Assembly: GCA_048882045.1 (NCBI GenBank)
Contig: JBHLRZ010000021.1
Span: 1 to 58,672, forward strand
Direction: 5' to 3'
DNA length: 58,672 bases
Source of the DNA: Candidatus Thorarchaeota archaeon
GTDB taxonomy: Archaea > Asgardarchaeota > Thorarchaeia > Thorarchaeales > Thorarchaeaceae
Positions within the stretch are counted from its first letter, which is position 1, and each line of letters opens with the position of its first letter. Made by a program: the position numbers and the translations under genes. The notes beneath the pieces were generated by a model. That model did not search any database and was not told the DNA's origin. It saw only the letters and a program-made list of their open reading frames with translations. Shown here piece after piece: positions 5,486-50,755 of the stretch.

Positions 5486-7641
5486 CTGACTTCAACCCAT
5501 ATTGGTCCGATGTATGTTGTGCGTCCATTGCCCCCAACAATGCGAATGATGTAAAAATCCACTCCATTAGTGTGGAGGGTAGTGGGATCAATAGGATTGT
5601 CGCTGTACTCATTGATATAGTACTGACCGTTAATCAGAACGCTGCTTTCAACCCCGTAGCTTGCGCCAGTCACTGCAGTTGAGTCAATATATGTTAGATT
5701 CACCACAGGTTGGGCCACAGTGATGCTAGTAAGAAGTTCTCCATTCTTAATTATCTCAACTCTCGCATTCCAATCAGGAACCCAGTTTTCTGTAACCGTA
5801 GCGGCGAGGGTGCGGGTTGCTGCTGGTGCACCATCTTGAGCTAAAATAATCTGTAGCACTCTTGGATCTAAGCCATCACTGACCGAAACAGTTGAGTTGC
5901 CACCCACACCTACACCATTGATTGTGAAATTGAGAAGGGGGCGACCATAATCGGAGGTTGCGTAAATCATCTGTCGTTCTAGTGCTGTAAAGATAGAATC
6001 ACGTGTGAGGTCAGAAGCATAGACTGCAGTCAGACCTCCAGGATATGGATGCTCATTTCGGGTATGCCAAACACTCCAGGGTCTTTGAATCCCAATGAAT
6101 GCAGGTGTGTGACTCAGGGAGTGACCAGGATGTCCATCATGTTGGTCACTTGCAGCATAGAGTGTCATCCGATAACCCATTCGAAATGCATCAATTATTG
6201 ATGTCCCATTCTGATACATTGGAGGCGGCGTGATCAATCCAACATAGTTTAGAGGATGACGTTGTTCATAGAGACACTCCCCGTGGACTGAGGTCACTTC
6301 AGCGATTTTTACATACCTCGGATTAATGTATGTCCAGTCATGTAGATATTGCTTCTGTGTGGTGTGATGGGGGAGTGCTAATGCTCTACAATCATTCTCT
6401 TCAGTAAAGTTATCAAGCGCATCCCATAGGCCATCTGTTGTTGGAATAGTCAGATAAGAGAGAAGAGGATCCTTGAGTAACTCCCCTCCGCTAAAGATGC
6501 AGGTGTAGTGACCTGTGCGTGTATTTGTCCACTCAATTCCGTGAAAGGTGACGAACTGATCAGGTGCATAGGCTGCGTTTGTTGCCTGCTCCAAGACATT
6601 GAGACTGTTGACTCCAAACAGCATTATTTCGCCGTGGTCGGTCATTGATATGAAGTCAAGACATGCCACATATCGACCATAATAGAAACCATGCTCCGCG
6701 GATCCTGTCCCATCCGATAGCTCAGAGTGATTGTGTACATCGCCCCAGAAGATGTCCAAGCTACTGTCGCTAGGCTCACGGATAATGACTGGATTACTAT
6801 AGTAAGTGTTCTCAGTCAATGAGTCATGAACTAGGATATAGTGAATTCCGGGAGTGTCGATTGTAACTGAGAATACATGGAGACCGTTGTCATTGCCATC
6901 TTGGACCATATATGCGATATCGGAACCAATCTCATGACCCGTGAATGTATAAGATTGTGGAAGGTCAGAAATAGCGTCTATTTCGATATAGGTAGAGCAG
7001 TTGTACGACTCGATTGAGAAGGTCACGGTTCCCTTATACGTGGCACTCAGCCGCTCGTAAGAGTCCCATGCTTCAACAGTGATCTCGAAACTCTCAGAAG
7101 CTACTGCTGTTGAGGGACACTTCACCCAGAGTAAAGTGGGTTCGTTGTTGAACATAACTCCATAATCCAAGTTGACACTAGACCACATGATGATCGGGGA
7201 GATGAGGACCATGAAGACAGAGAACTGGACAAGATTTTGTGACAATGTTCTCCTTCTTTGGTTGATAGATTGGACTAGAGCGGGAGTGGACCTCCCAAAA
7301 CGAAACCATGCCCAGTGTATGGAGGATGCGAGTGAATAGAAAGCAAAGATGGCTATTGAGGAATATACTGCTGTGGTCAAAGGAGCCATTGTTTTGACGT
7401 GATGTGCGAGAAGGGGAGAAACACCTGAGGATATGGTCAGAATGACTCCGTGTCTTGACCACGCAGTTCCCTGAAATACTTTGAAGAATACAATTCCAAT
7501 GAAAAGTCCAATGAAACTGAAGAAGAACCAGCAAGTGCTGAAAATTCCGAAGAAGAAGACTAGGGGTTTCAGAATTCGTACAAGTATAGCGGCAGTTGGG
7601 TGAGCGCTGACTGTCGATCCATCAGACACTTCTGTGCACAT
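5482..7641 (-). CDS. Membrane-anchored PHP-domain (DUF3604-like) metallohydrolase
   Basis: WGDVHNHSELSDG, TDH, GIEWT, PHHT, SDQHDGHPG; N-terminal TM helices. Confidence 0.8.
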   Translation of the reverse strand: MCTEVSDGSTVSAHPTAAILVRILKPLVFFFGIFSTCWFFFSFIGLFIGIVFFKVFQGTAWSRHGVILTISSGVSPLLAHHVKTMAPLTTAVYSSIAIFAFYSLASSIHWAWFRFGRSTPALVQSINQRRRTLSQNLVQFSVFMVLISPIIMWSSVNLDYGVMFNNEPTLLWVKCPSTAVASESFEITVEAWDSYERLSATYKGTVTFSIESYNCSTYIEIDAISDLPQSYTFTGHEIGSDIAYMVQDGNDNGLHVFSVTIDTPGIHYILVHDSLTENTYYSNPVIIREPSDSSLDIFWGDVHNHSELSDGTGSAEHGFYYGRYVACLDFISMTDHGEIMLFGVNSLNVLEQATNAAYAPDQFVTFHGIEWTNTRTGHYTCIFSGGELLKDPLLSYLTIPTTDGLWDALDNFTEENDCRALALPHHTTQKQYLHDWTYINPRYVKIAEVTSVHGECLYEQRHPLNYVGLITPPPMYQNGTSIIDAFRMGYRMTLYAASDQHDGHPGHSLSHTPAFIGIQRPWSVWHTRNEHPYPGGLTAVYASDLTRDSIFTALERQMIYATSDYGRPLLNFTINGVGVGGNSTVSVSDGLDPRVLQIILAQDGAPAATRTLAATVTENWVPDWNARVEIIKNGELLTSITVAQPVVNLTYIDSTAVTGASYGVESSVLINGQYYINEYSDNPIDPTTLHTNGVDFYIIRIVGGNGRTTYIGPIWVEVS

Positions 7642-7806
7642 CCAATTACGAATTAGTAGTAGAATTACTGATACTCAACCGACATTTAACAACATTCATT
7701 CCTTGTTTTAACGAAAGTTCATATTCTTTCAAGAAATAGCTCTCTTGAGTTTGACTTTTCGGATGACTCGTGGAGGGAATTTGTCATAGGAGCCGCTCTC
7801 GATACA

Positions 7807-8517
7807 TTGGTTACCCTGTTGATATACAGCACGATCTCAGTTGTTGTTATCATGCTGCCAACAGTATGGGGGAGAGCCCTGAAAGGCAATTTGAAGACTA
7901 GCATACTCAGAAAAAAACCACTCCTAGTCCCATCATTGGTCTTCGTCATCACGACATTGGTGGTGTCGGCATATGTACCCCTACCAATGTCAGTATATCA
8001 CGGATCGCATCAACAGGATGTGAATTTTCTTGGGGAAGGAAGGTTCGCAGTGTACGAAACTATCGCTTATGATAATGCTCGGATACGAATCAGACGAAGC
8101 TTGGAAGTTGATGAAAGAGTAGAGTTCTTCGCGAACTTCTCTCAGGATGGCGAAGTGATTCAGTATCTGGCTGTGAACATTACATATAATGATCTTGATG
8201 AAAACTATATGGTCAACGAAATTCTCAGTCTTGAACCCGGGTTGTATGATTTTGAAATGACGTATACATTCTACAAGTCAGATGTCATTCAGAGTGACGA
8301 ATATGTGGACATCTTGCTTTATCAGCCGATCAATTCATCATTCTTACCAGAAGTTATTGATTGGGCATCATATCAATTCATACTAGGTTTCGGGCTTCTC
8401 TTCTTTTTCCTCGTAGGACTCATCATAGGAAGGGAAAGGAAGTCCAGAAAAAGTGAGGAACCAGTTGATCAAGAACCTCCCAGAGATGAGACCTATAGCA
8501 AGAGATACAAAGTATAG
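7807..8517 (+). CDS. Hypothetical membrane protein
   Basis: TM segments at both ends. The frame is open upstream to ~7690, so the start is uncertain. Confidence 0.7.
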   Translation: MVTLLIYSTISVVVIMLPTVWGRALKGNLKTSILRKKPLLVPSLVFVITTLVVSAYVPLPMSVYHGSHQQDVNFLGEGRFAVYETIAYDNARIRIRRSLEVDERVEFFANFSQDGEVIQYLAVNITYNDLDENYMVNEILSLEPGLYDFEMTYTFYKSDVIQSDEYVDILLYQPINSSFLPEVIDWASYQFILGFGLLFFFLVGLIIGRERKSRKSEEPVDQEPPRDETYSKRYKV

Positions 8518-8528
8518 GATTTGGCATG

Positions 8529-9482
8529 CTAGAGGAAGGGCAAGACACTATGGACAAATTTCTCACTCATTTCAATCTCTCTTTCGTAGGGGAATAGAAG
8601 AGGAAAGTGAGTGAATCCCATCCCTAGTAGATGTTCATATTGAGCGGATATCTCCTCTGGAGATCCAGCCCAGGATCCAGGAAGACTGGACTGTTTCTCT
8701 AAATATGCTGCTACTGAGATTCCTTGTTCATGGGCACGTTTTTGATTGAACTTATGAATCTCATTTTCATCCTCTGTGATCAGACAGTACCCTAGGAAGG
8801 TTTTTGAAATCTCATCGAAATTACGATTCAGATCCCTGCAATGTTGTTTCAACACCTTCAATAGTCTATCAAGTCGCTCTGACGCCCAAGGTGAGAAGTT
8901 GCTCATGTCCCCATATTTCGCGACCATACGTAGTGTCCGTTTCTCTCCGTGTCCGCCTATCAGTATTGGAGGATGGGGCTTTTGCACAGGCTTAGGAGCA
9001 AAGACCGCATCACGCAACTGATAGTATTCACCGTCGAAGTTTGCGCGGTCCTCAGTCCACAGAGCTCGAATGACTTGAAGAGCCTCCTCAAGTCGGTCCA
9101 TCCGTTCTTTGAGGGGAGGGAATCGATATCCGTATGCTCTGTACTCGACCTCTTTCCATCCTGCTCCAATACCAAGTATCAGACGTCCCTCTGAGATCAT
9201 GTCAAGTGTTGCAGCAATTTTAGCGAGCATCGCTGGGTTTCGATACGAGTTACCTGTAACCATTACTCCAAGTTGCATACTAGAGGTCTTTGTGGCGAGA
9301 GCAGTGAGCAAGGTCCATGCCTCGAGACTGTTCGTATCTATAGAGTCTTGGTCCTTGAAGAAATGGTCGCAGGTCCATACTGAGTCAAATCCTAAACGCT
9401 CAGCTTTCAGAGTGATTTCCTCAATCGTCTTGTAATCAAATCCGAAAAGCGGCTCGAAGTGGATGCCAAACTTGGGACGCAT
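8529..9482 (-). CDS. LLM-class (probably F420-dependent) oxidoreductase
   Basis: WTCDH, EAWTLL, YRNPAMLAK, LGIGAGW..EY..YG, PKPVQKPHPP. Confidence 0.9.
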   Translation of the reverse strand: MRPKFGIHFEPLFGFDYKTIEEITLKAERLGFDSVWTCDHFFKDQDSIDTNSLEAWTLLTALATKTSSMQLGVMVTGNSYRNPAMLAKIAATLDMISEGRLILGIGAGWKEVEYRAYGYRFPPLKERMDRLEEALQVIRALWTEDRANFDGEYYQLRDAVFAPKPVQKPHPPILIGGHGEKRTLRMVAKYGDMSNFSPWASERLDRLLKVLKQHCRDLNRNFDEISKTFLGYCLITEDENEIHKFNQKRAHEQGISVAAYLEKQSSLPGSWAGSPEEISAQYEHLLGMGFTHFPLLFPYEREIEMSEKFVHSVLPFL

Positions 9483-41236: not shown

Positions 41237-42466
41237 ATGGTTGCAACAATGATCATGCAACGGATGAGTGTCGCTATGGAATATGGTGTGATACTCAAGT
41301 GGCTGAAGAAAGAGGGTGACAAGGTTAAGCAGGGAGAACCCATCGTCGAGATCTTCGGTGAGAAGAACGAGTTTGAACTGGAGTCTCCGGCAGACGGAGT
41401 CCTGCTCAAGATCCTATGTGACGTGGATGATGAGATACCCATCAGTGAACCAATTGCATTCATCGGCAAGGAAGGTGAAGAGATTCCTGATGTTCGACCT
41501 CAGAAACTGAATGCCGCTGCAGCCAAGCCCACTACTCCCGTAGCCCCCGTGACAACTCCAGCATCAAAAGCCACAACAAAGGCAGCCATAGCTCCAGCAA
41601 TCGACACTAGACTACCAGGAGGAAAGATCAAAGCCTCTCCACGAGCCAAGAAGAAGGCCAAAGAGATGGGTGTTGATTTGGCCACAATCGCTGGTTCGGG
41701 ACCAGATGGGCGAATCATAGAGAAAGATGTAGTTGCCGTCCCTACTGCTCCGCAAGTCATGATCTCAGACGACCGAAACGTGAAAGAAGTCATGACTATG
41801 TCTCCACTCCGTAGGACCATAGCACGTAGGATGACCCAGAGCTATCAGAATCCACATATCACCATGATTACTGAGATTGACATGACTGAAACAGTGGAGA
41901 TTCGAGCAGAGATCAATGAACGAGTAGAAAAGAAACATGGCATACGGGTATCGTTCAATGACATCATCGTAAAGGCTGTCGCTGACACGCTCGAAAAGTT
42001 CCCAAAGTTCAATGCAACACTGAGTGGCAATGACCTTCACATCTTCAAAGACATCAATATTGGAGTTGCTATTGCAACTGACGAGGGGCTCATAGTAGTA
42101 ACTGTAAGAAATGCAAACAAGAAGTCGATAACCGACATTGCTGTCGAAACAAAAGAGTTTGGAAAGCGAGCAAAGCAGAATGCTCTCAAGCCCGAAGAAC
42201 TCACTGGCAGTACATTCACAGTGTCTAATCTTGGACCATTCAATGTCGACCTGTTTATTCCAGTCATCAATCCTCCAGAAACTGCGATACTTGCTCTCGG
42301 TCAGATCAAGAAAAAACCAGTCGTGATTGATGACAAGATCGAGATCAGATCGACAATGATGGCCAGCTGTGCTGTTGACCACAGAGTCTTAGACGGAGCC
42401 CCTGCAGGTGAGTTCCTTGCTGCACTGAAAGAAACACTCGAGAATCCTTACATGATGAAGTTCTGA
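41237..42466 (+). CDS. Dihydrolipoamide acyltransferase E2
   Basis: Lipoyl domain (EIFGEKN), peripheral-subunit-binding domain (ASPRAK...GSGPDGRI), catalytic DHRVLDGA. Confidence 0.93.
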   Translation: MVATMIMQRMSVAMEYGVILKWLKKEGDKVKQGEPIVEIFGEKNEFELESPADGVLLKILCDVDDEIPISEPIAFIGKEGEEIPDVRPQKLNAAAAKPTTPVAPVTTPASKATTKAAIAPAIDTRLPGGKIKASPRAKKKAKEMGVDLATIAGSGPDGRIIEKDVVAVPTAPQVMISDDRNVKEVMTMSPLRRTIARRMTQSYQNPHITMITEIDMTETVEIRAEINERVEKKHGIRVSFNDIIVKAVADTLEKFPKFNATLSGNDLHIFKDINIGVAIATDEGLIVVTVRNANKKSITDIAVETKEFGKRAKQNALKPEELTGSTFTVSNLGPFNVDLFIPVINPPETAILALGQIKKKPVVIDDKIEIRSTMMASCAVDHRVLDGAPAGEFLAALKETLENPYMMKF

Positions 42467-42515
42467 GTTCCAAAGCATTATCTATCTTCGAGCTGATAGT
42501 TCACCTGATAGGGAG

Positions 42516-42839
42516 ATGATTAACACTAACACCTGTCCAAAGTGTGGAGGAAACAGAATAGCTGGACCTCACAAGATTTACGGGCAGCATAGTGTTAGGA
42601 TTGATCTTCCTGGAGTACTTACGGCTACCCTTGAGTCGTTCACATGTGCTGACTGTGGATACACAGAACTATACTCTGACAGAATAGGATTAAAGAACAT
42701 CAATGAGGCTGGGCGATTCCTATTGGGTACTGAATCAACTTCATATCCTCAAAATGAGCCACGAAGCTGTCCTTACTGCGGTTCTCAACTAAAAGCAGGC
42801 GCCAAAAGCTGTCACGAGTGCGGGCAATACTTATCTTAG
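42516..42839 (+). CDS. Double zinc-ribbon protein
   Basis: CPKC...CADCGYTELY; CPYC...CHEC. Confidence 0.8.
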   Translation: MINTNTCPKCGGNRIAGPHKIYGQHSVRIDLPGVLTATLESFTCADCGYTELYSDRIGLKNINEAGRFLLGTESTSYPQNEPRSCPYCGSQLKAGAKSCHECGQYLS

Positions 42840-42864
42840 TTTTCGACTCAAATTATCAGGGGGA

Positions 42865-42987
42865 CCTTATATTCTAGGGAGCAGACCCAATGTCGACACG
42901 TATCATTTCGTGTCAGCCTCGAATACGACACTCATACTCCTTATTTTGGAGCAGACAACATGATCACTCCAACCCCAATTGTTGGAG
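42865..42987 (+). repeat. Left copy of island-boundary repeat
   Basis: CCTTATATTCTA-N18-GACAC-N10-GTGTCAGCCTCGAATAC (core 42910-42926), then CTCCAACCCCAA; matches 49391-49481. Confidence 0.75.
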
Positions 42988-43060
42988 GTATTCTTGCGAT
43001 AGTAATCACCGCTCTGATGAAATTCGATGAATGAATAATGATTGATCAGCATTTGCTTTT

Positions 43061-44767
43061 CTAGGGTTTCCATCTTTCCTTCCGAAGTGACCAATGGAAT
43101 GCACAATACCAGGGGTCTGGAATAAAACTTTCATCGCTTGGACGGGACATACAGCAGGCTTCGTTAGAACAATACAATTCACGCCATTCCCACGCCCACC
43201 AATCCCAATAATATTCAATTATCCCAGCGAAGTGCCCAAACTCATGAAGTAATACAGATCTAGCAACATCAATGTAGTCTCCGTAGCCCTCCCCAAGTGG
43301 TGGGTCCAACGAATAAAGATATAGAGCATGATGGAAGATTGCGCAACCCCATTCATAGCCATTTTCTTCATAGTATGCTCCTCCTGTATACTGGCTGTAG
43401 TAGAAAGAATTTCCAATCAAGAGCCACTGATAAATCGATGATCCCTGATGAGAGTAATAATCGAGATGAAGAGCCTCCCATTCTAATACAGTGAGGGGCG
43501 AATAAGATTCTTCAAAAGGGATTGCGCTATCTATGTAATAATCAGGTCTTTGATATCCATGAAGTATGTAGTACGTTTTGACATATTCTAACATGTCATT
43601 CATGTTACTAATACTCATCAATGGGTTCCCACCAGAATCGGTCATGTAGTCCACTTCCAATTTCACTTCACGATAATTCACACAATTGTAAGTCAGCTTC
43701 TTCTGATAATATGAAGCGGGATTTTCAAGGAGTTTCAACCTGATATAGTAGTCTGTCGTGATGTATCCCATGTATAGCCTGTATGGAACACCTGAGGAGA
43801 TTGATGTTTTGAGATACCAAGAAGAGGAGTAACTTGTTTTAAACCAAATTTCAATTGTCCGAAACGGGGAACCGCCTTCATTCTCAATATAAATGTCAAA
43901 GTAGGTAGATTTGCCCGCCATAACTTGGTAATCTAGCGTCGGATTGATGTCATCTGCATTCCCTCCGGGAAAATACTCCCAAAAATCTGGGATTGGTTCA
44001 TCAGGCCAATTAGGAATGTCTATCCAGGGCCAAATATGGGTCATCTTCCATTGGTTCTCTTTCCAGCCGCACCAATTGATTTGAACTTCAACCTTATGGG
44101 TTCCAGCTGGAATATATGAAATCGGGATTGAGCCATGGAATCCCCCAGATCCGATGACAGCCTGATAGACGATATTACCGTCAAAGTAGACAGTGAGGGT
44201 TCTCGAATAGATATCTTGGTCCCTTTCAATGTCAAGACAAATATAAGCATATAACAAATAGCTAGGATAGTCCCATTCAAATGCTAGAGCAGAGTAGCCC
44301 TTCTTACGGAACCAATGACCGCTCTTGGCAGGACTCATGGGTAACGCAGGAAACATTTTTGTTGGAGGTGGAGATGTTAAGAGAGAGTTCTCATTGAGTG
44401 TCCCAATTGGACCATCGAATACATCTCTGGGATCTTCAACACTTGAGTTACCGTACTTACTAAATAAGACAATGGGGTCTACTGTTTCATTATAATCTTC
44501 TGTATGGATAATCCTCTCTCTCTGAACGGGAATGAATTCGTCATTATCTTCCGTTTCACTTAAACTGTCCGGTGTCGACTCAGTCCAGTTTAAGGCCATA
44601 AAGTCTAGGACCTGATTCTCCGCTCTCATTGCATTATAGGAGATGATTTTCTCCACCTCAGATACTGAAGGAGAAACCAGTGTAGGTGATTCAGCTGGAC
44701 CTAACAAAGCTACACTCTGTGGACACAAAAAGGAAACAATCAGAAATAGAACAAGAACGCTTCGCAA
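43061..44767 (-). CDS. Secreted zincin metallopeptidase-like protein
   Basis: Signal peptide; HEFGH followed by an archaemetzincin-like C....CCM...C..H. Confidence 0.7.
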   Translation of the reverse strand: MRSVLVLFLIVSFLCPQSVALLGPAESPTLVSPSVSEVEKIISYNAMRAENQVLDFMALNWTESTPDSLSETEDNDEFIPVQRERIIHTEDYNETVDPIVLFSKYGNSSVEDPRDVFDGPIGTLNENSLLTSPPPTKMFPALPMSPAKSGHWFRKKGYSALAFEWDYPSYLLYAYICLDIERDQDIYSRTLTVYFDGNIVYQAVIGSGGFHGSIPISYIPAGTHKVEVQINWCGWKENQWKMTHIWPWIDIPNWPDEPIPDFWEYFPGGNADDINPTLDYQVMAGKSTYFDIYIENEGGSPFRTIEIWFKTSYSSSWYLKTSISSGVPYRLYMGYITTDYYIRLKLLENPASYYQKKLTYNCVNYREVKLEVDYMTDSGGNPLMSISNMNDMLEYVKTYYILHGYQRPDYYIDSAIPFEESYSPLTVLEWEALHLDYYSHQGSSIYQWLLIGNSFYYSQYTGGAYYEENGYEWGCAIFHHALYLYSLDPPLGEGYGDYIDVARSVLLHEFGHFAGIIEYYWDWWAWEWRELYCSNEACCMSRPSDESFIPDPWYCAFHWSLRKERWKP

Positions 44768-44884
44768 AACCTCTCTCCTCCACGCAATACACCATAGATT
44801 TACACTTTATTCTTAATAGTTCTTTTGTTCATCTAATTTTTTTTTAAAAAAATAGAATATATTTGGAAATTTAGTTTCTTCTAC

Positions 44885-46129
44885 TCATTCAACACTTCGC
44901 AGTATCTGTTTGTATCTGCGTTTGTACCACAATATGCATATCCCTGAAACTACGAAACTCCCTGAAAATATCATTACCACGACAGAGAGTATGTTGGAGA
45001 TGACAACCGGGTTCTCAAAATAGAGTCCAGGATGTAAATCATGAAAGTGGCCACTAATTGCATCTACTTCCACTGCATATTCCCCACCCACCTCAATATC
45101 GCCTAAAAGTAAACTTGTTACTCTAAATGTCCAAGCCAATTGGAATTGAATGCTCTGTTGTCTATAAAGGTCAAGTCGCACGAGACGCAGAGTACCATTT
45201 CCCCATTCAACCGAAGCTTCTGGAGGTTGAAGATAATTCTCCAATGCTGATCTTCGTGCTGCTTCAACATTTAGGATTCCTACCTCGTTAACATCTATGT
45301 ACGGTATGTTGATGAGATCGTAGAAGAAGCTGATGATTCGTCCCGTCGAGGCACTTATTCGTAGTCGAATGCCTGAAGATTGTTTATCCGGGAAGACATT
45401 GCCAACAGGCGTGCTTATTATAATTTCATACAAATCAGGGCTCACGGTTGAATTGTATTCTTCCTGCATGAGATCATAGAAGTGTTCGTCTGTGATTTTC
45501 TGTGTAGTTCTGATGTGTCTTGATGTAGGAAGAAGAGTATAGTTATGTGACTCAAGGAAATCAGCTGCAATCAAGGTTACCTGTGACTCTGATAGGGGCT
45601 CTGTATCCTTATATGGGTAGAAATCTAGTAGGTTGGAAGAAACATTGGATTTTTCATTCCAGAATTCCTCATATCCAATTATTTCCCCGGATATAGAATT
45701 GATTATTACTTGAACTACAAGACAAAGCACTTGATTTGTGTAGTTTTCAAAAATAAAACTCCAGCGAGTCGAGTCGTTGGTGAAGGAACGGGTATATTCG
45801 AGATGTTGCAGCATACTACTATTCACAAAGGATTCAGCGTATTCTTGTGCAGTTTCCAGAGATACCCTGTCACTTGATAATCTCAGAGAGAGCCGATATG
45901 GGTTTTCTGAGTCCAAGGACCAAGCACCATTGTACGCCGCCGCATGAAGAGTTGAGTCGACTAGCTGTGCAAAGAGTGTTTCTTCGAGAGGTGAACCAGG
46001 GAGTGAAATTAGACTGTTGTCCATCCTAGTAGATAGATATGTGATTCGCGGTAAGGTTGAACCAGCCAGGATTGATATAAGCATTATAACAGCAATTAAT
46101 CTCCTAGACTGGAATCGATAAATCAACAT
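44885..46129 (-). CDS. Membrane-anchored surface protein with PepSY-like repeats
   Basis: INSISGEII, ISASTGRII, VDAISG; N- and C-terminal TM. Confidence 0.6.
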   Translation of the reverse strand: MLIYRFQSRRLIAVIMLISILAGSTLPRITYLSTRMDNSLISLPGSPLEETLFAQLVDSTLHAAAYNGAWSLDSENPYRLSLRLSSDRVSLETAQEYAESFVNSSMLQHLEYTRSFTNDSTRWSFIFENYTNQVLCLVVQVIINSISGEIIGYEEFWNEKSNVSSNLLDFYPYKDTEPLSESQVTLIAADFLESHNYTLLPTSRHIRTTQKITDEHFYDLMQEEYNSTVSPDLYEIIISTPVGNVFPDKQSSGIRLRISASTGRIISFFYDLINIPYIDVNEVGILNVEAARRSALENYLQPPEASVEWGNGTLRLVRLDLYRQQSIQFQLAWTFRVTSLLLGDIEVGGEYAVEVDAISGHFHDLHPGLYFENPVVISNILSVVVMIFSGSFVVSGICILWYKRRYKQILRSVE

Positions 46130-46224
46130 TCTGCAATCATGTAATATTTGAGAATATCTCTATATAATCCTAGGTCTTGAGCTTCCCTAAGATTCACATA
46201 CCAAGAGGTGTACAACTTTTTGTA

Positions 46225-46692
46225 CTACTGGAAACCTTTCTGTAATATCCACCTAGTTTCGAAAAGGAAAATTGTAATCGCGATTAACAAGACTAGCACT
46301 AGTGTAATGTCCGACGGATGAATCGTCAATTGAAGGAAGAGGAAAGATGATATGAGCAATGAAACGAAAAATAAAGCATAGAAGAGGAATCGAGGAATCA
46401 ATCTGTTACCGATATCAATGAAATAAGTAAGAACACCAGCACGTACCCTTCTTGTAGCAATGAACATTCCATCCTCATTAACATCCACTAGACCTATTTC
46501 TTTGAGTTTGTCAAGGTGGTAGAAAGATAGGCTTGGACTTGAGAAACCAAGCTTTCGATATATCTCCCGTCCTGACCATGGTTGTCCAGTCCTAAGAAGG
46601 AGATAGTACACTTTCAATGTTCTCCCTCTCAATACCTCTGAAAGGTCTTGTTCATCAACTTTGATGCTTTTCTTTGAAACCATCCTCCACAC
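46225..46692 (-). CDS. Membrane-anchored winged-HTH regulator
   Basis: TLKVY..LL...REI.RKLGFSSPSL..YHL.KL...GLV, plus two C-terminal TM segments. Confidence 0.8.
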   Translation of the reverse strand: MWRMVSKKSIKVDEQDLSEVLRGRTLKVYYLLLRTGQPWSGREIYRKLGFSSPSLSFYHLDKLKEIGLVDVNEDGMFIATRRVRAGVLTYFIDIGNRLIPRFLFYALFFVSLLISSFLFLQLTIHPSDITLVLVLLIAITIFLFETRWILQKGFQ

Positions 46693-46749
46693 AGACCTAA
46701 ATCACAATCCAATAATTTGATTTTATATCTTTACAGCTATCTCTAAAAA

Positions 46750-47985
46750 CTATTCAGAATTCTCAATGGTTCTAAGTTTCATGCATCGCTCGTAGTACTC
46801 TCTTCTTACTCCCCCTCCCAACTTCCATAACTCAATATCACCAGGTATAATCTCAAAGGCTTGTTCAATCTCTTTATTCGATCCTTCTGAATCACCATGA
46901 CTCATTAATACCTCAGCTTTTAAAACTCGGGCTATGAAAAGATACCACTTTACGTCCTCATCTTCCAAGTCCATATTCATGAGAAGTGAGATATTTCCTT
47001 CGGCCTTCTCGAGTGCAACATCAAATCTATTATGTCTGACATAATGCTCCACGAGATGATTTGTATGAGAGCACACAGCCCTTAGCTTACCGGCCTCCTG
47101 ATATTCCTCGATATCCGCCAATAATTCCGCCTCTTCACGGTCAACACTATTTATTTCTTGTTCATCGTCATCAAAAATCTCTCTCAGCATCATTCTGAAC
47201 TCCTCCTTATTCTCAATTGTGTATTCAGATAATGTGAACTCATCAAGGGCATCAATCACTGATTCAGCATCATCATCACTTGGTGTGAACTCTTCTTCAA
47301 ATATTACAACCTCGTTCTCTCCAATGGAACTCAAAGATATTTTCAACAAAGCACCAATTTGAGTTGCATCAGCACGACACTGTGGTTTCTCATTTCCCCA
47401 TCCATAGTCCCTGAGTCCTTTTCTTATACTACTAAGTTCCGCATCATAGTTGGCAATGTTGTTTCTTGATGCACTGACATTCTCCAAATCTCCGACCAGT
47501 TCTTCTATCATCTCCTTAAGGTTTAGAGATCCGTTCAGTTTCGTACTGAAAGTCTTACCCATCCAAGACTGGTTTGTCTGTGGTGAAATCAGAGTCCATA
47601 GAATCTCACCCGCCTTGAACCGACTTGATAGCACCCATTCACCCTCTGGGAGTGACAGAACCTCTTCCTCATGCTCTTCTTCGATAGCTCTAATGGACCG
47701 AGTAAGTTGCGAATCCTCAGCAACACCTGAAGGTAACCGCACACCTCTTAGTTGACTCACATCGATATCAAGCGTGAACTCTTTTCCAATGCTGGCATCA
47801 ACCAATCCCTCACACTCAACGAGTAGCTCCAACTCATAGGGATTAATCCACTCACTCTCAAGACTCTTGATCTGTGAATTCTTTGGTAATCCTTTGAGCT
47901 TGACTGTGATGAAATTGAAATCTCCACTGTTTCGACGGACCTCATCCACCTCTGCTACAAGAATGATTGTTCCTCCACTCGACGC
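46750..47985 (-). pseudogene. Probable 3' fragment of a larger acidic protein
   Basis: The frame stays open past the called GTG (47949) to a TAA at ~47986-47988, into the 5' end of the divergent tnpB ORF, so there is no room for a promoter. Confidence 0.5.
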
Positions 47986-49310
47986 TTACTATGACCTCCC
48001 TCCAACCCGAGCTTGAGATTCGACACTGGTTGAAGCTCAGAGACTCTCTGGATTCAGTCAGTGAGGGGCGCGTTAGACATGACAAGCTCATGATTCCCCT
48101 CTCCATTTCTTCTTATCATCTCAATCGAATGAATGAGAGAGAGGTAAAGACAGTCCGTATCTTCAAGGACTCTCTTCGTAAGTGGTGGGCCATCTTCACG
48201 GTTACTCTTGAAGCTGATAGTATAGATACTGTTGGAAAGCTCCCTGCTGTGTTGTCCATTGACCTTGGAATCAAAAAGGCCGCATGTTCTGTCCTTCTTA
48301 CCAAAAAAGGATACAAACAGGTTCAATATTGGAAACAGGAAGACAAGCTCCAACGAATGAAGGTATTGGATGAGAGGGTTGCCTCCCTCCAGCGAGAGAA
48401 GGAACAACTCATTGCTAAAAGAGAGAATCCAGATAAGGTGACAGTCCAGCTCAGAGATCTGAGTGGAAAACGAGAACGTGTCAGCAAAGAATATGATAAG
48501 AAGCTTGTCAGAGATATCTCCGACTACATCAAAGAGATGACCAAGCAGTATGACCTCTATGTTTCAATTGGGAAGTTGAAGGGAATTAGGAATACTGCTA
48601 GAAAAGGTAACTATAGAGGGAGATGGTTCAGAGGAATGATCCACAGCTGGGCCTTTGCTAGAATTCGTGATAAGTTGGAACACAAACTCACATCCATTGG
48701 CTTTGACTCCAAGAAGTTCATTGCTGTCCCTGAGCAGTGGACCTCTATCATGTGTCACAAATGTGGACACAAAGGAATGCGACCAAAGCAGAACCTCTTC
48801 ATCTGTACAACCTGTGGATACAAAGCAAACGCCGACCTGAATGGCGCTCTCAACATCGGGAAGCGCCTCATCATACTCATCCCATCACTGAGAGATGAGA
48901 ATGGACTAGGGATGTGGCTTACTCCCAGAGATAGAGCCATACTGAAAGCCCAGAGGATGACACGTTCTTCTGATGGGAAGTCCGAACTCTCCCAGAGGAC
49001 ACCAGCCTCGAAGGGGGAGTCCGTGGCCGACTGCTATGACCAGACTTCACTTGTGGAGTCTGCGAGGAGTGAAGACCTTGCCATGGTAAATGCTGTGGAA
49101 ACACCGACTGCCATCATACCGTCTGGTGGGTGTGAATCAACGCAGCGGACAGAAGCCGGGTCCCATTGGAGGAACGATGTTCCTGTGAAGAAGGGCAAAG
49201 CTTGCGATACTTTGAAGGACACCGGTCTTTCAGATACTGGTGACAGTAGTCGTAAGAAAGGTGGAACACAGAAGTTTCTTGACGTGAGTTCACTCACTCT
49301 TGAATCATAA
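47967..49310 (+). CDS. tnpB: TnpB-family RuvC/Zn-ribbon nuclease, likely 5'-truncated, with long C-terminal tail
   Basis: SIDLG (RuvC-I D99), W.F..I..KL, EQWTS..CHKC...CTTC (ZnF), NADLNGALNI (RuvC-III D290). Confidence 0.88.
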   Translation: MFLHSTLTMTSLQPELEIRHWLKLRDSLDSVSEGRVRHDKLMIPLSISSYHLNRMNEREVKTVRIFKDSLRKWWAIFTVTLEADSIDTVGKLPAVLSIDLGIKKAACSVLLTKKGYKQVQYWKQEDKLQRMKVLDERVASLQREKEQLIAKRENPDKVTVQLRDLSGKRERVSKEYDKKLVRDISDYIKEMTKQYDLYVSIGKLKGIRNTARKGNYRGRWFRGMIHSWAFARIRDKLEHKLTSIGFDSKKFIAVPEQWTSIMCHKCGHKGMRPKQNLFICTTCGYKANADLNGALNIGKRLIILIPSLRDENGLGMWLTPRDRAILKAQRMTRSSDGKSELSQRTPASKGESVADCYDQTSLVESARSEDLAMVNAVETPTAIIPSGGCESTQRTEAGSHWRNDVPVKKGKACDTLKDTGLSDTGDSSRKKGGTQKFLDVSSLTLES

Positions 49311-49321
49311 GAAATGGTCTT

Positions 49322-49471
49322 ACGACATCTGCTCCAAGCCAATGAATTGTGTTGATTTATGCTCCTAAATATCAACAACAGATTATTGGTCCTTAAATTC
49401 TATAATTGAAATTCATTAATGACACATCCATTATGTGTCAGCCTCGAATACAACGACATCTGCTCCAAGCC
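49322..49471 (+). repeat. 19-bp perfect direct repeat ACGACATCTGCTCCAAGCC (two copies)
   Basis: Copies at 49322-49340 and 49453-49471. Confidence 0.9.
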
Positions 49472-49481
49472 CCAACCGTTG
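49391..49481 (+). repeat. Right copy of island-boundary repeat
   Basis: CCTTAAATTCTA-N18-GACAC-N9-GTGTCAGCCTCGAATAC (core 49435-49451), then CTCCAAGCCCCAA. Confidence 0.75.
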
Positions 49482-49528
49482 CTCTGGGGCCTCCAGCCGG
49501 TGGAGAGCAACCTAATTATTCCACCGGC
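49469..49528. ncRNA. Putative structured RNA: two hairpins with complementary loops
   Basis: Stems GCCCCA/TGGGGC and GCCGGTGGA/TCCACCGGC; loops GTTGCTC and GAGCAAC are complementary. Confidence 0.45.
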
Positions 49529-49582
49529 AAACAACAAGCTAATCAGTCACGGAGATAAACGACCAGCAAGAGTGTTTGACTG

Positions 49583-50377
49583 ATGTCTTGGCGCTTAATT
49601 GAAGAGATGGATAATGATGTTTTCCACAACCTAGCAATAGACGAGAGTCTTGCCAGAACAATATCAGTTCAAGACGAGAAGAGGAACACACTCCGATTCT
49701 GGAGATCCGCGAGCGCGGTGGTCATCGGTCGATTCCAGTGTGTGCATAAAGAGATCAACCTAGACTATTGCAAGAAGAATGACATTTCCATAGCCAGACG
49801 ATTCACCGGTGGAGGAACTGTTTACCAAGATATGGGAAATCTCAACTTCTCCATTTGTGTGGACAAAAGAGAGAAATACGTCCCTGCGTCATTGAAAGAG
49901 ATCTATGAGAGGTTCATTGGAGGATTGGCCAATGGTCTACAGTCAATCGGTATTCCAGCAGAGTATGATCCTGTTCGTTCTTGTATCAGAATTAGAAGTA
50001 TGAAAATTACCGGAACTGCTGGGTGGCTCAAGCGAGGAGTAGCATTTCTTCACGGAACACTCTTGGTAAGTGCGAATCTCAAAAAGCTCAGAGAGTGTCT
50101 GAATCCTCCAGAGAACCAGACAGTCTATCTGAGAGACCGGTCTAGAATAAGATGCACTGAGAGCAAGAGGGACAATGTGACAAACATTGAGGACGCTGTG
50201 CGTGACTGTCCTAGTCTGGATGAAATCAAACACACGGTCATAGAGGGTGTAAAAACTATTTCTGGACAATCTGTTGAAAGAGGGAGGTTGACCAAGGAGG
50301 AGAAGGACACTTCACAGGTTTTATATCAGAGCCGCTATTCCAAGTCCTCGTGGAATCTGGGGACACCAGCCCCATGA
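49583..50377 (+). CDS. lplA: Lipoate-protein ligase A (catalytic domain only)
   Basis: NLAIDE, RRFTGGGTVYQD.GNLN, KITG, HGTLL. Confidence 0.9.
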   Translation: MSWRLIEEMDNDVFHNLAIDESLARTISVQDEKRNTLRFWRSASAVVIGRFQCVHKEINLDYCKKNDISIARRFTGGGTVYQDMGNLNFSICVDKREKYVPASLKEIYERFIGGLANGLQSIGIPAEYDPVRSCIRIRSMKITGTAGWLKRGVAFLHGTLLVSANLKKLRECLNPPENQTVYLRDRSRIRCTESKRDNVTNIEDAVRDCPSLDEIKHTVIEGVKTISGQSVERGRLTKEEKDTSQVLYQSRYSKSSWNLGTPAP

Positions 50378-50401
50378 CCCTATTATTACGAGGAATGATT
50401 A

Positions 50402-50755
50402 ATGACAACTGACGATGTTGAGAAGACCCTAAAGAGCTTCATGAGACACTTTGGTGCATTGAACAGGGACATACCCGATGTCAGAAATGCATTCACAGAC
50501 CTGCAGAAATCTGTTCATCAAGACGGAGCACTGTCTGCGAAAATGAAGGAGATGATGTGTATTCTGGCTTCGATCCTATCACCCTGCGAAGAATGCATGG
50601 TCTATCATACCAAGCAAGCCCTTACATTAGGTGCAACCAGAGAAGAGATCATGGAAACATGCTCTGTAGCAATTGTGATGGGGGGAGGACCTGCAGCTTC
50701 GCACATTGCAACAATTCAGGACTGCCTTGATGCCTGGGCACCTAAGAAGAAGTAA
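50402..50755 (+). CDS. CMD/AhpD-family protein
   Basis: GALSAKMKE, CEEC..YH...A...GATREEI.E, MGGGPA. Confidence 0.88.
   Translation: MTTDDVEKTLKSFMRHFGALNRDIPDVRNAFTDLQKSVHQDGALSAKMKEMMCILASILSPCEECMVYHTKQALTLGATREEIMETCSVAIVMGGGPAASHIATIQDCLDAWAPKKK

Follow-up and report, generated by a model that had tools for sequence, protein, structure and literature searches.

The window analysed here is a stretch of 58,672 nucleotides (nt), contig JBHLRZ010000021.1 of the Candidatus Thorarchaeota archaeon assembly GCA_048882045.1. It contains, on the forward strand at 47967 to 49310, an open reading frame (ORF) that belongs to the TnpB nucleases, and next to it, in the opposite orientation, the end of a second gene (Table 1). 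The tnpB frame has 447 codons and opens with a TTG. Among Pfam families its product matches Cas12f1-like_TNB at 5.9e-15, well above the cut-off, and OrfB_IS605 weakly; a full-length relative scores 98.8 bits with the NCBIfam model guided_TnpB, whose cut-off is 100. The RuvC-I, RuvC-II and RuvC-III motifs are all present together with a C4 zinc finger between the second and the third, and the glutamate stands at an alternative position. A script run on the ORF translation places D99 in SIDLG (residues 97-101), G202 in YVSIGKL (198-204), E256 in AVPEQWTS (253-260), D290 at the close of NAD (288-290), and the two CxxC pairs at 263-266 and 280-283. Every residue that an initial annotation of this DNA had named was thereby located.

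The catalytic site and its class

In HMMER alignments G202 faces the canonical catalytic Glu of solved Cas12f proteins, and P-E-Q-W faces the residues that precede their conserved TS. In an alignment of cluster representatives, the G202 column holds Glu in four relatives of the canonical type. AlphaFold2 places G202 at the end of strand 195-203 and E256 after strand 251-255, and its model of a full-length core has a mean predicted local distance difference test score (pLDDT) of 80. On these models, a Gly at the end of beta-4 replaces the usual Glu, and the working Glu would lie just past beta-5.

The window family comprises 449 homologs, which come from Thorarchaeota and are named TnpB by their sources. 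Full-length relatives are 578-580 aa long and begin with MGRSKG. Across 47 aligned homologs, with identities down to 52%, D99, G202, E256, D290 and the four Cys never vary; E256 is the counterpart of E390 in the full-length relative P0006. For a wider view, a profile search of 1.84 billion cluster representatives (50%-identity clusters) returned 5,662 matches, and the catalytic positions were counted in the best 150 of these, 108 of which span both positions. Gly with the alternative Glu is found in 103 of the 108 clusters and Ser with the alternative Glu in one, and in the remaining four the canonical Glu is kept and the alternative site is Ala or Pro; no cluster has both Glu residues or lacks both. 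The canonical and the alternative Glu are thus mutually exclusive in these clusters, as is predicted for a relocated catalytic residue. One distant relative comes from a Heimdallarchaeota metagenome-assembled genome (MAG).

This arrangement has been described before. Jiang et al. (PMC10530073) reported a class in which RuvC-II carries Gly or Pro and a Glu follows some 45 residues on; the E467A substitution inactivates ApmFNuc, the archaeal TvTnpB of this type cleaves DNA, and the tested members lack collateral cleavage. Yoon et al. (PMC10711439) located the alternative Glu six residues before the zinc finger, and the spacing of E256 to C263 is an exact fit to their ExxxxxxCxxC pattern. Altae-Tran et al. 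(PMC10691335) named several branches with a rearranged RuvC-II, including a major Glu-to-Gly clade, and found that the new Glu follows the next RNase H-fold strand; some of these branches are nearly confined to archaea, and Asgard-linked TnpB groups are described as well. The replacement of Glu by Gly with a compensating Glu ahead of the zinc finger, as claimed in the initial annotation, is genuine, and since it equals the published alternative-Glu class, the type of site is already known. Judged by sequence, the window family is a member of this TnpB2, Ealt or RIIr class.

In common with TvTnpB (PMC10530073) and the D-phi-G + Ealt group (PMC10711439), the window family replaces the canonical Glu by an inert residue (Gly or Pro), places a conserved alternative Glu some 45-55 residues further on, six ahead of the zinc finger, keeps both Asp and has a prokaryotic host. 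TvTnpB of Thermoplasma volcanium resides within an IS605 element with TnpA, whereas no TnpA was found for the window family, whose proteins also differ from the class in being about 580 aa long, because the frame reads through an RNA scaffold of about 420 nt, and in being paired with a giant orphan gene. RIIr-5 (Glu to Gly), RIIr-6 and RIIr-8 (both almost confined to archaea) and the 'derived' NADxN clade (PMC10691335), compared by description, share with the window family the Glu-to-Gly change compensated by a Glu past the next strand, NADxN in RuvC-III and a retained C4 finger. By analogy with the tested class members, intact members of the window family would be active, guide-dependent DNA cutters.

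Relation to Fanzors

The initial annotation had called the site a Fanzor-type pattern and had suggested that an Asgard lineage of this type bears on where Fanzors came from. Such a reading takes the window ORF for an intact, Asgard-resident TnpB whose site marks a lineage near the origin of the eukaryotic Fanzors. In its favour, the alternative Glu is there in every family member aligned, the names of the homologs point to an Asgard-type archaeon as host, a relative occurs in the Heimdallarchaeota MAG, and mimivirus Fanzor2 is detectable as a structural match. The Gly plus alternative-Glu state is, however, widespread among prokaryotic TnpBs, and what defines Fanzors and cyanobacterial pro-Fanzors is the alternative Glu together with DPG at RuvC-I (Yoon et al., PMC10711439). 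The window reads DLG, and DPG occurs in 0 of 95 related clusters, of which 84 have DLG and the remainder DFG, DMG, DIG or DVG.

Similarity searches point the same way. Among solved proteins the family profile matches Cas12f at 3e-12, TnpB at 2.5e-10 and mimivirus Fanzor2 at 4.6e-4, and finds no match to Fanzor1; it thus favours Cas12f and TnpB over Fanzor2 by eight to nine orders of magnitude. In Foldseek searches Cas12f and TnpB are on top for both models, with full-length relatives reaching 1e-15 to either, while Fanzor2 ranks 20 and 22 and the Spizellomyces Fanzor1 ranks 37 with the first model and falls outside the top 50 with the second. Fanzor2 (mimivirus ApmFz2, PDB 9b0l), Fanzor1 (SpuFz) and the cyanobacterial pro-Fanzors have in common with the window family the alternative RuvC-II Glu and a TnpB-like WED-REC-RuvC-zinc-finger architecture. 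They differ in having DPG for DLG and in their IS607 or eukaryotic transposon context; genome searches found neither an IS607 serine recombinase context nor that of a eukaryotic transposase for the window family. The alternative Glu of the initial annotation thus stands, although it is not specific to Fanzors. A special tie of the window family to eukaryotic Fanzors is not supported by these comparisons, and with the window copy also lacking residues 1-146 (see below), descent near the Fanzor origin is highly improbable.

A probable RNA scaffold within the reading frame

Beyond RuvC-III the protein carries a tail of about 145 aa, which the initial annotation had regarded as disordered-looking and as possibly overlapping the omega-RNA. 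The disorder is real in the AlphaFold2 model, where residues 334-447 have a pLDDT below 35 and no secondary structure and the first 20 or so tail residues form a helix of moderate confidence. The overlap with an omega-RNA is strongly supported by two features of the DNA, the lack of codon periodicity and an excess of compensatory changes. Among eight copies, divergence at the first, second and third codon positions of the tail is 0.145, 0.134 and 0.164, compared with 0.11-0.15, 0.09-0.11 and 0.38-0.44 in the N-terminal, core and RuvC/zinc-finger parts of the gene. RNAalifold predicts 121 pairs from 25 copies, with 96.8% of the cells in the pair count paired. There are 33 compensatory pairs against 13.2 +/- 2.1 in shuffled alignments (0 of 500 shuffles reached the observed number), and 8-13 when the 3′ partners are slid as a control; helices 10 and 20 each occur in two fully compensated versions. 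Conservation among the 25 copies ends at 49321, and an Rfam scan of 47500-49700 with E values up to 1 matched no family.

On this evidence the last 136 or so codons are probably mainly RNA-coding. The scaffold would be a multi-helix omega-RNA of about 420 nt that ends in a hairpin bearing AGTTCACTCA, the next 19 or so nt would serve as the guide, and the protein frame would run on through the scaffold, held free of stops. The arrangement resembles that of ISDra2 TnpB and its omega-RNA (reRNA), in which the nuclease gene shares its 3′ end with the scaffold, and the scaffold stops at the right end of the element and is followed by the guide. ISDra2 TnpB and Cas12f are also the best fold matches of the window family. 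ISDra2 TnpB has the canonical Glu, and DRDxN where the window family has NADxN; Cas12f is guided from CRISPR arrays; and the scaffold of the window family is two to three times longer and lies wholly within the open frame. In a sediment metatranscriptome a single 201-nt contig was found at 48961-49160, and no other part of the stretch, which is a weak hint of expression. Run X7 (DNA) covers 48934-49280 only and run X8 (RNA) 48961-49160 only, and nothing can be concluded from the missing cover elsewhere.

It could be argued instead that the tail is chiefly a disordered C-terminal protein extension, that the stand-alone copies of this module found elsewhere (solo copies, see below) are genes for a 136-aa protein, and that RNA structure is secondary or absent. 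Frame 1 is indeed open in 25 of 25 copies, where about 7.9 would be expected under random placement of the same substitutions (frames 2 and 3 have 3-14 stops), and the copies differ in length by multiples of three. At first and second codon positions the tail diverges about as little as the catalytic core does, the solo copies have an in-frame ATG at their junction in 13 of 13 cases, and the initial helix would suit a protein. Such an extension does not account for third positions that are as conserved as the first and second, in linked and solo copies alike (0.108, 0.120 and 0.124 in the solos), nor for the exchange of entire stems through compensatory changes. Moreover, 114 residues have a pLDDT below 35, and the tail has 4 invariant residues where the core has dozens. 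A tail that is mainly protein is accordingly unlikely, and the region is read as an RNA scaffold that must stay translatable, with an extra role of the peptide being possible.

A deletion truncated the window copy

The first 13 codons of the window ORF are not TnpB. Homology to the family begins at about 48003, which is residue 147 of the full-length relatives, and the ORF aligns to family residues 147-576 only. Upstream, on the opposite strand, an ORF of 399 aa corresponds to the C-terminal 394 residues of proteins that are 1,876-1,884 aa long in relatives, and tblastn matches it to residues ~1469-1874 of frames that are open there. Intact copies of this partner gene lie at L057:1150-6786, at L060:4372-10002 and, within the same genome as the window, at C11:73472-78133. 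When the window is aligned by blastn to the intact locus L057, 46775-47976 matches 1169-2373 and 48006-49297 matches 7477-8764; 5,103 nt are absent between these blocks, and about 29 nt of filler separate them. The missing DNA holds some 1,470 partner codons, the divergent spacer of about 240 nt with the promoter, and tnpB codons 1-146. In the full-length AlphaFold2 model, residues 1-146 account for the initial WED strands and for REC, which is helical. Full-length relatives have the N-terminal WED and REC parts that hold the guide-target duplex; the window copy has lost them, and the remnant therefore cannot hold this duplex. The homologous start codon and promoter of tnpB are gone as well.

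The event is read as a 5.1-kb deletion with 29 nt of filler. It would have joined the 3′ end of the partner gene to tnpB codon 147 and taken away the promoter and start codon, together with the sequence for the first WED strands and for the entire REC lobe. A 34-mer across the junction (47980-48013) recurs exactly on another contig of the same genome (C15:17182-17215), inside an FAD-oxidoreductase-like gene. The filler looks like the templated filler DNA of a repair junction.

The same 34-mer raises the question of whether the truncation is an assembly artefact, in which unrelated contigs were joined through a shared sequence and the real tnpB is intact. In runs X1 and X3, from two studies, the Logan contigs all end at 47976-48013, where the 34-mer forms a node of double depth that two paths enter and two leave, and one gene call in the protein collection starts exactly at the homology boundary, as it would at a contig end. 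The tnpB contig, however, begins with 20 nt of non-TnpB filler, and the gene would be cut at codon 147 on either path through the node. The alternative path reads an intact oxidoreductase ORF of 526 aa on C15, and all four arms have single-copy depth (21-24). The join also restores the order E2 ... partner / tnpB ... lplA of the relative G016, in which the orthologous locus, split over two contigs, retains both genes, each reaching a contig end. The join is held to be correct because of the filler at the start of the tnpB contig, the intact ORF on C15 and the single-copy arms; an artefact is very unlikely.

A reading of the ORF as an intact TnpB does not hold. The preferred reading, to which we assign a probability of about 0.8, is that the window carries the truncated remnant of an alternative-Glu TnpB from a two-gene unit, and that its tail is the omega-RNA scaffold. 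With promoter, start, WED strands and REC lost, this nuclease gene is most likely dead. The deletion is probably recent, as the remnant ORF is free of stops and frameshifts and its sequence appears not to have decayed yet.

Several points weigh against this reading or parts of it. Divergence between the remnant and its G016 ortholog still has the mark of purifying selection (0.118, 0.094 and 0.387 by codon position), and the remnant might retain some function. The stop-free frame of all 25 copies and their triplet length differences imply that translation of the tail matters somehow. A short T-run closes many copies; if it is a terminator, it would stop the transcript before the flank, leaving no guide derived from the flank. 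We infer the ends, the strand and the expression of the omega-RNA from sequence, and the lone contig of the RNA library could be carry-over of DNA or stem from a relative. A position of E256 near D99 and D290 is predicted from strand order in the models, and the activity of the family is argued by analogy with tested members of the class.

Table 1. Position of the tnpB remnant, its predicted RNA and the neighbouring features in the window
Feature	Position	Strand	Remarks
Partner-gene C-terminal remnant, 394 aa	46750..47949	-	DNA homology to intact copies at 46770-47977
Open frame, 3′ three-quarters of tnpB	47967..49310	+	Family residues 147-577: part of WED, RuvC-I/II/III, zinc finger, read-through tail
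Deletion junction and filler	47977..48005		34-mer at 47980-48013 shared with contig C15
RuvC-I Asp D99, DLG motif	48261..48263	+	Script; invariant in 47 homologs
G202, canonical RuvC-II Glu position	48570..48572	+	Alignment; ends model strand 195-203
E256, alternative RuvC-II Glu	48732..48734	+	Six residues before C263; directly after strand 251-255
C4 zinc finger C263, C266, C280, C283	48753..48815	+	Pfam, script, alignment
RuvC-III Asp D290, NADxN of 'derived' TnpBs	48834..48836	+	Script, alignment; motif class from PMC10691335
Predicted omega-RNA scaffold module, ~423 nt	48899..49321	+	Under codons 311-447; AGTTCACTCA at 49287-49296 in terminal hairpin
Predicted guide, 19 nt	49322..49340	+	Directly 3′ of conserved scaffold; identical copy at 49453-49471
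Second 19-mer copy, possible target	49453..49471	+	Directly after right copy (49429-49454) of 26-nt direct repeat

Solo scaffold copies and the 3′ motif

The scaffold also occurs by itself. At least 13 solo copies are present in five relatives (L033-L046, for example G015:C121:763-1172), and the 13 examined all begin at the equivalent of 48899. Solo and linked copies alike end shortly past the hairpin with AGTTCACTCA. The solo copies have a leader of 38-60 nt in common, in which an AT-rich box precedes the module by about 25-30 nt, and their flanks differ; two of the copies, in G008 and G024, occupy orthologous sites. The solo copies may represent independent genes for guide RNAs or a derivative similar to a miniature inverted-repeat transposable element, and their leader suggests separate transcription units. 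That they simply arose from the 7.6-kb unit by a deletion leaving its left and right ends was rejected because the leader is unlike the sequence beyond the partner-gene stop.

In Asgard TnpBs associated with aCas1, a conserved GTTCACTCA lies downstream of the gene, at the 3′ end of the locus (PMC10691335). This motif is present in the window at 49287-49296 and in every copy examined. The Cas1H-Asgard-1 and Cas1H-Asgard-2 groups of that study thus resemble the window family in their Asgard hosts and in the GTTCACTCA motif at the tnpB 3′ end, and some of their loci are flanked by repeats. The window family differs from them in having no Pfam-detectable Cas1 in its own genome and five relatives, in the constant presence of a neighbour of about 1,880 aa that has no Cas1 signal, and in the stretch before the motif, a short one of 10-23 nt that shows no hypervariability between close copies.

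Full-length loci also carry a short inverted repeat, whose upstream arm, GGAGTGAACTC, lies near -57 relative to the tnpB ATG and whose other arm, AGTTCACTC, is found at the 3′ end (49287-49296 in the window); homology between copies begins near the upstream arm. TATA-like AAGTTTAAAT boxes are found at about -27 and -118 and covary within a copy.

The predicted guide and the flanking island

The 19-mer that follows the scaffold at 49322-49340, whose role as a guide is proposed from its position, has a perfect second copy 131 nt away. Both copies are identical in the G016 ortholog, though the flanks differ. A scan for 14-mers found repeats of this kind only in the window, in its G016 ortholog and in locus L008, and a 13-mer scan with one mismatch allowed added a weaker repeat, 66 nt downstream, in L060. 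For two solo copies no second copy of the flank was found in their genome, and guide-target duplication is therefore not general.

A 26-nt direct repeat (42904-42929 and 49429-49454), with similarity traceable over about 90 nt, brackets an island of 6.5 kb between the gene of a lipoyl-dependent E2 acyltransferase (41237-42466) and lplA (49583-50377). The repeat holds a hairpin with compensated changes (GACACG..CGTGTC versus GACACAT..ATGTGTC). That it might be a tRNA was rejected because ARAGORN found none on 42000-50500. Proteins encoded in the island include one of 568 aa and one of 414 aa, both without a family match, and one of 155 aa with weak helix-turn-helix matches. In G016 this site is occupied as well, by a partly different cargo. 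Just left of the island, at 42516-42839 on the forward strand, a double zinc-ribbon protein of 107 aa with a faint match to the TnpB TNB domain (E 0.004) is encoded; it is conserved in G016.

At L008 (G023:C56) an 18-nt direct repeat with one mismatch flanks a tnpB element of 2.13 kb in the manner of a target-site duplication, one copy lying about 390 nt upstream of the ATG and the other directly after the 3′ end. Elements of the IS200/IS605 and IS607 types make no target-site duplications.

The partner gene and the two-gene unit

The truncated locus would represent the right-hand remnant of a two-gene unit that is multi-copy in a Thorarchaeota-like genus, in which a TnpB of about 580 aa and an orphan gene for about 1,880 aa diverge from a spacer of about 240 nt. 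The partner has no sequence match in Pfam, NCBIfam, PADLOC or PDB, alone or as an alignment of seven members; an Atlas feature search gave 0.78, which is below the useful range, and no Cas1 signal was seen at E values up to 5. In the seven-member alignment D399 and E421-x-K423 (L057 numbering) are invariant, which we take to resemble the PD-(D/E)xK nuclease motif.

A second interpretation of the pair is that it is not an ordinary insertion sequence, and that TnpB and its partner of about 1,880 aa serve RNA-guided homing, addiction or defence of a larger island, with the two 19-mers as guide and chromosomal target. In 17 fetched loci, the intact pair on C11 of the same genome among them, the partner N-terminus lies divergently upstream of tnpB, and the arrangement persists down to identities of 42-55% for TnpB and 28-49% for the partner. 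No Y1 transposase (PF01797) or serine recombinase (PF00239) was found in the window's own genome, which is 93% complete, and no Cas1 (PF01867) was matched there or in five relatives, a search that a very diverged Cas1 might escape. The five relatives also lack a Y1 transposase; they do have serine recombinases, but none next to tnpB. In addition, the locus is orthologous in two species, and the 19-mer after the scaffold recurs just past the right-hand repeat of the island, with both copies unchanged in G016. Against this, the unit is multi-copy, as mobile DNA is, with up to 23 matches in one genome; some full-length tnpB copies and the Heimdallarchaeota relative are without the partner; the two solo flanks speak against guide-target pairs in general; and with a partner that has no recognisable domain, no mechanism can be argued. 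An RNA-guided two-gene system of this kind is a minority view and rather unlikely. With similar caution, this TnpB family, its partner and its frame-preserved omega-RNA of about 420 nt might together be an undescribed RNA-guided element of Thorarchaeia, one that has spun off leader-bearing guide-RNA genes and whose guide here matches a chromosomal site just outside the island.

Significance

The proposal of an origin of Fanzors fails, since the type of site is published and widespread, the second hallmark of Fanzors is missing and the copy is broken. What the locus provides is a clean natural case in which some 400 nt serve an RNA scaffold and a reading frame at once, with both constraints measurable. 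The long omega-RNA, supported by covariation, could guide the engineering of the alternative-Glu family, and the solo scaffold copies with a leader of their own resemble guide-only genes. The deeply conserved pairing of TnpB with a giant protein without a detectable domain is a concrete lead to a new TnpB-associated function.

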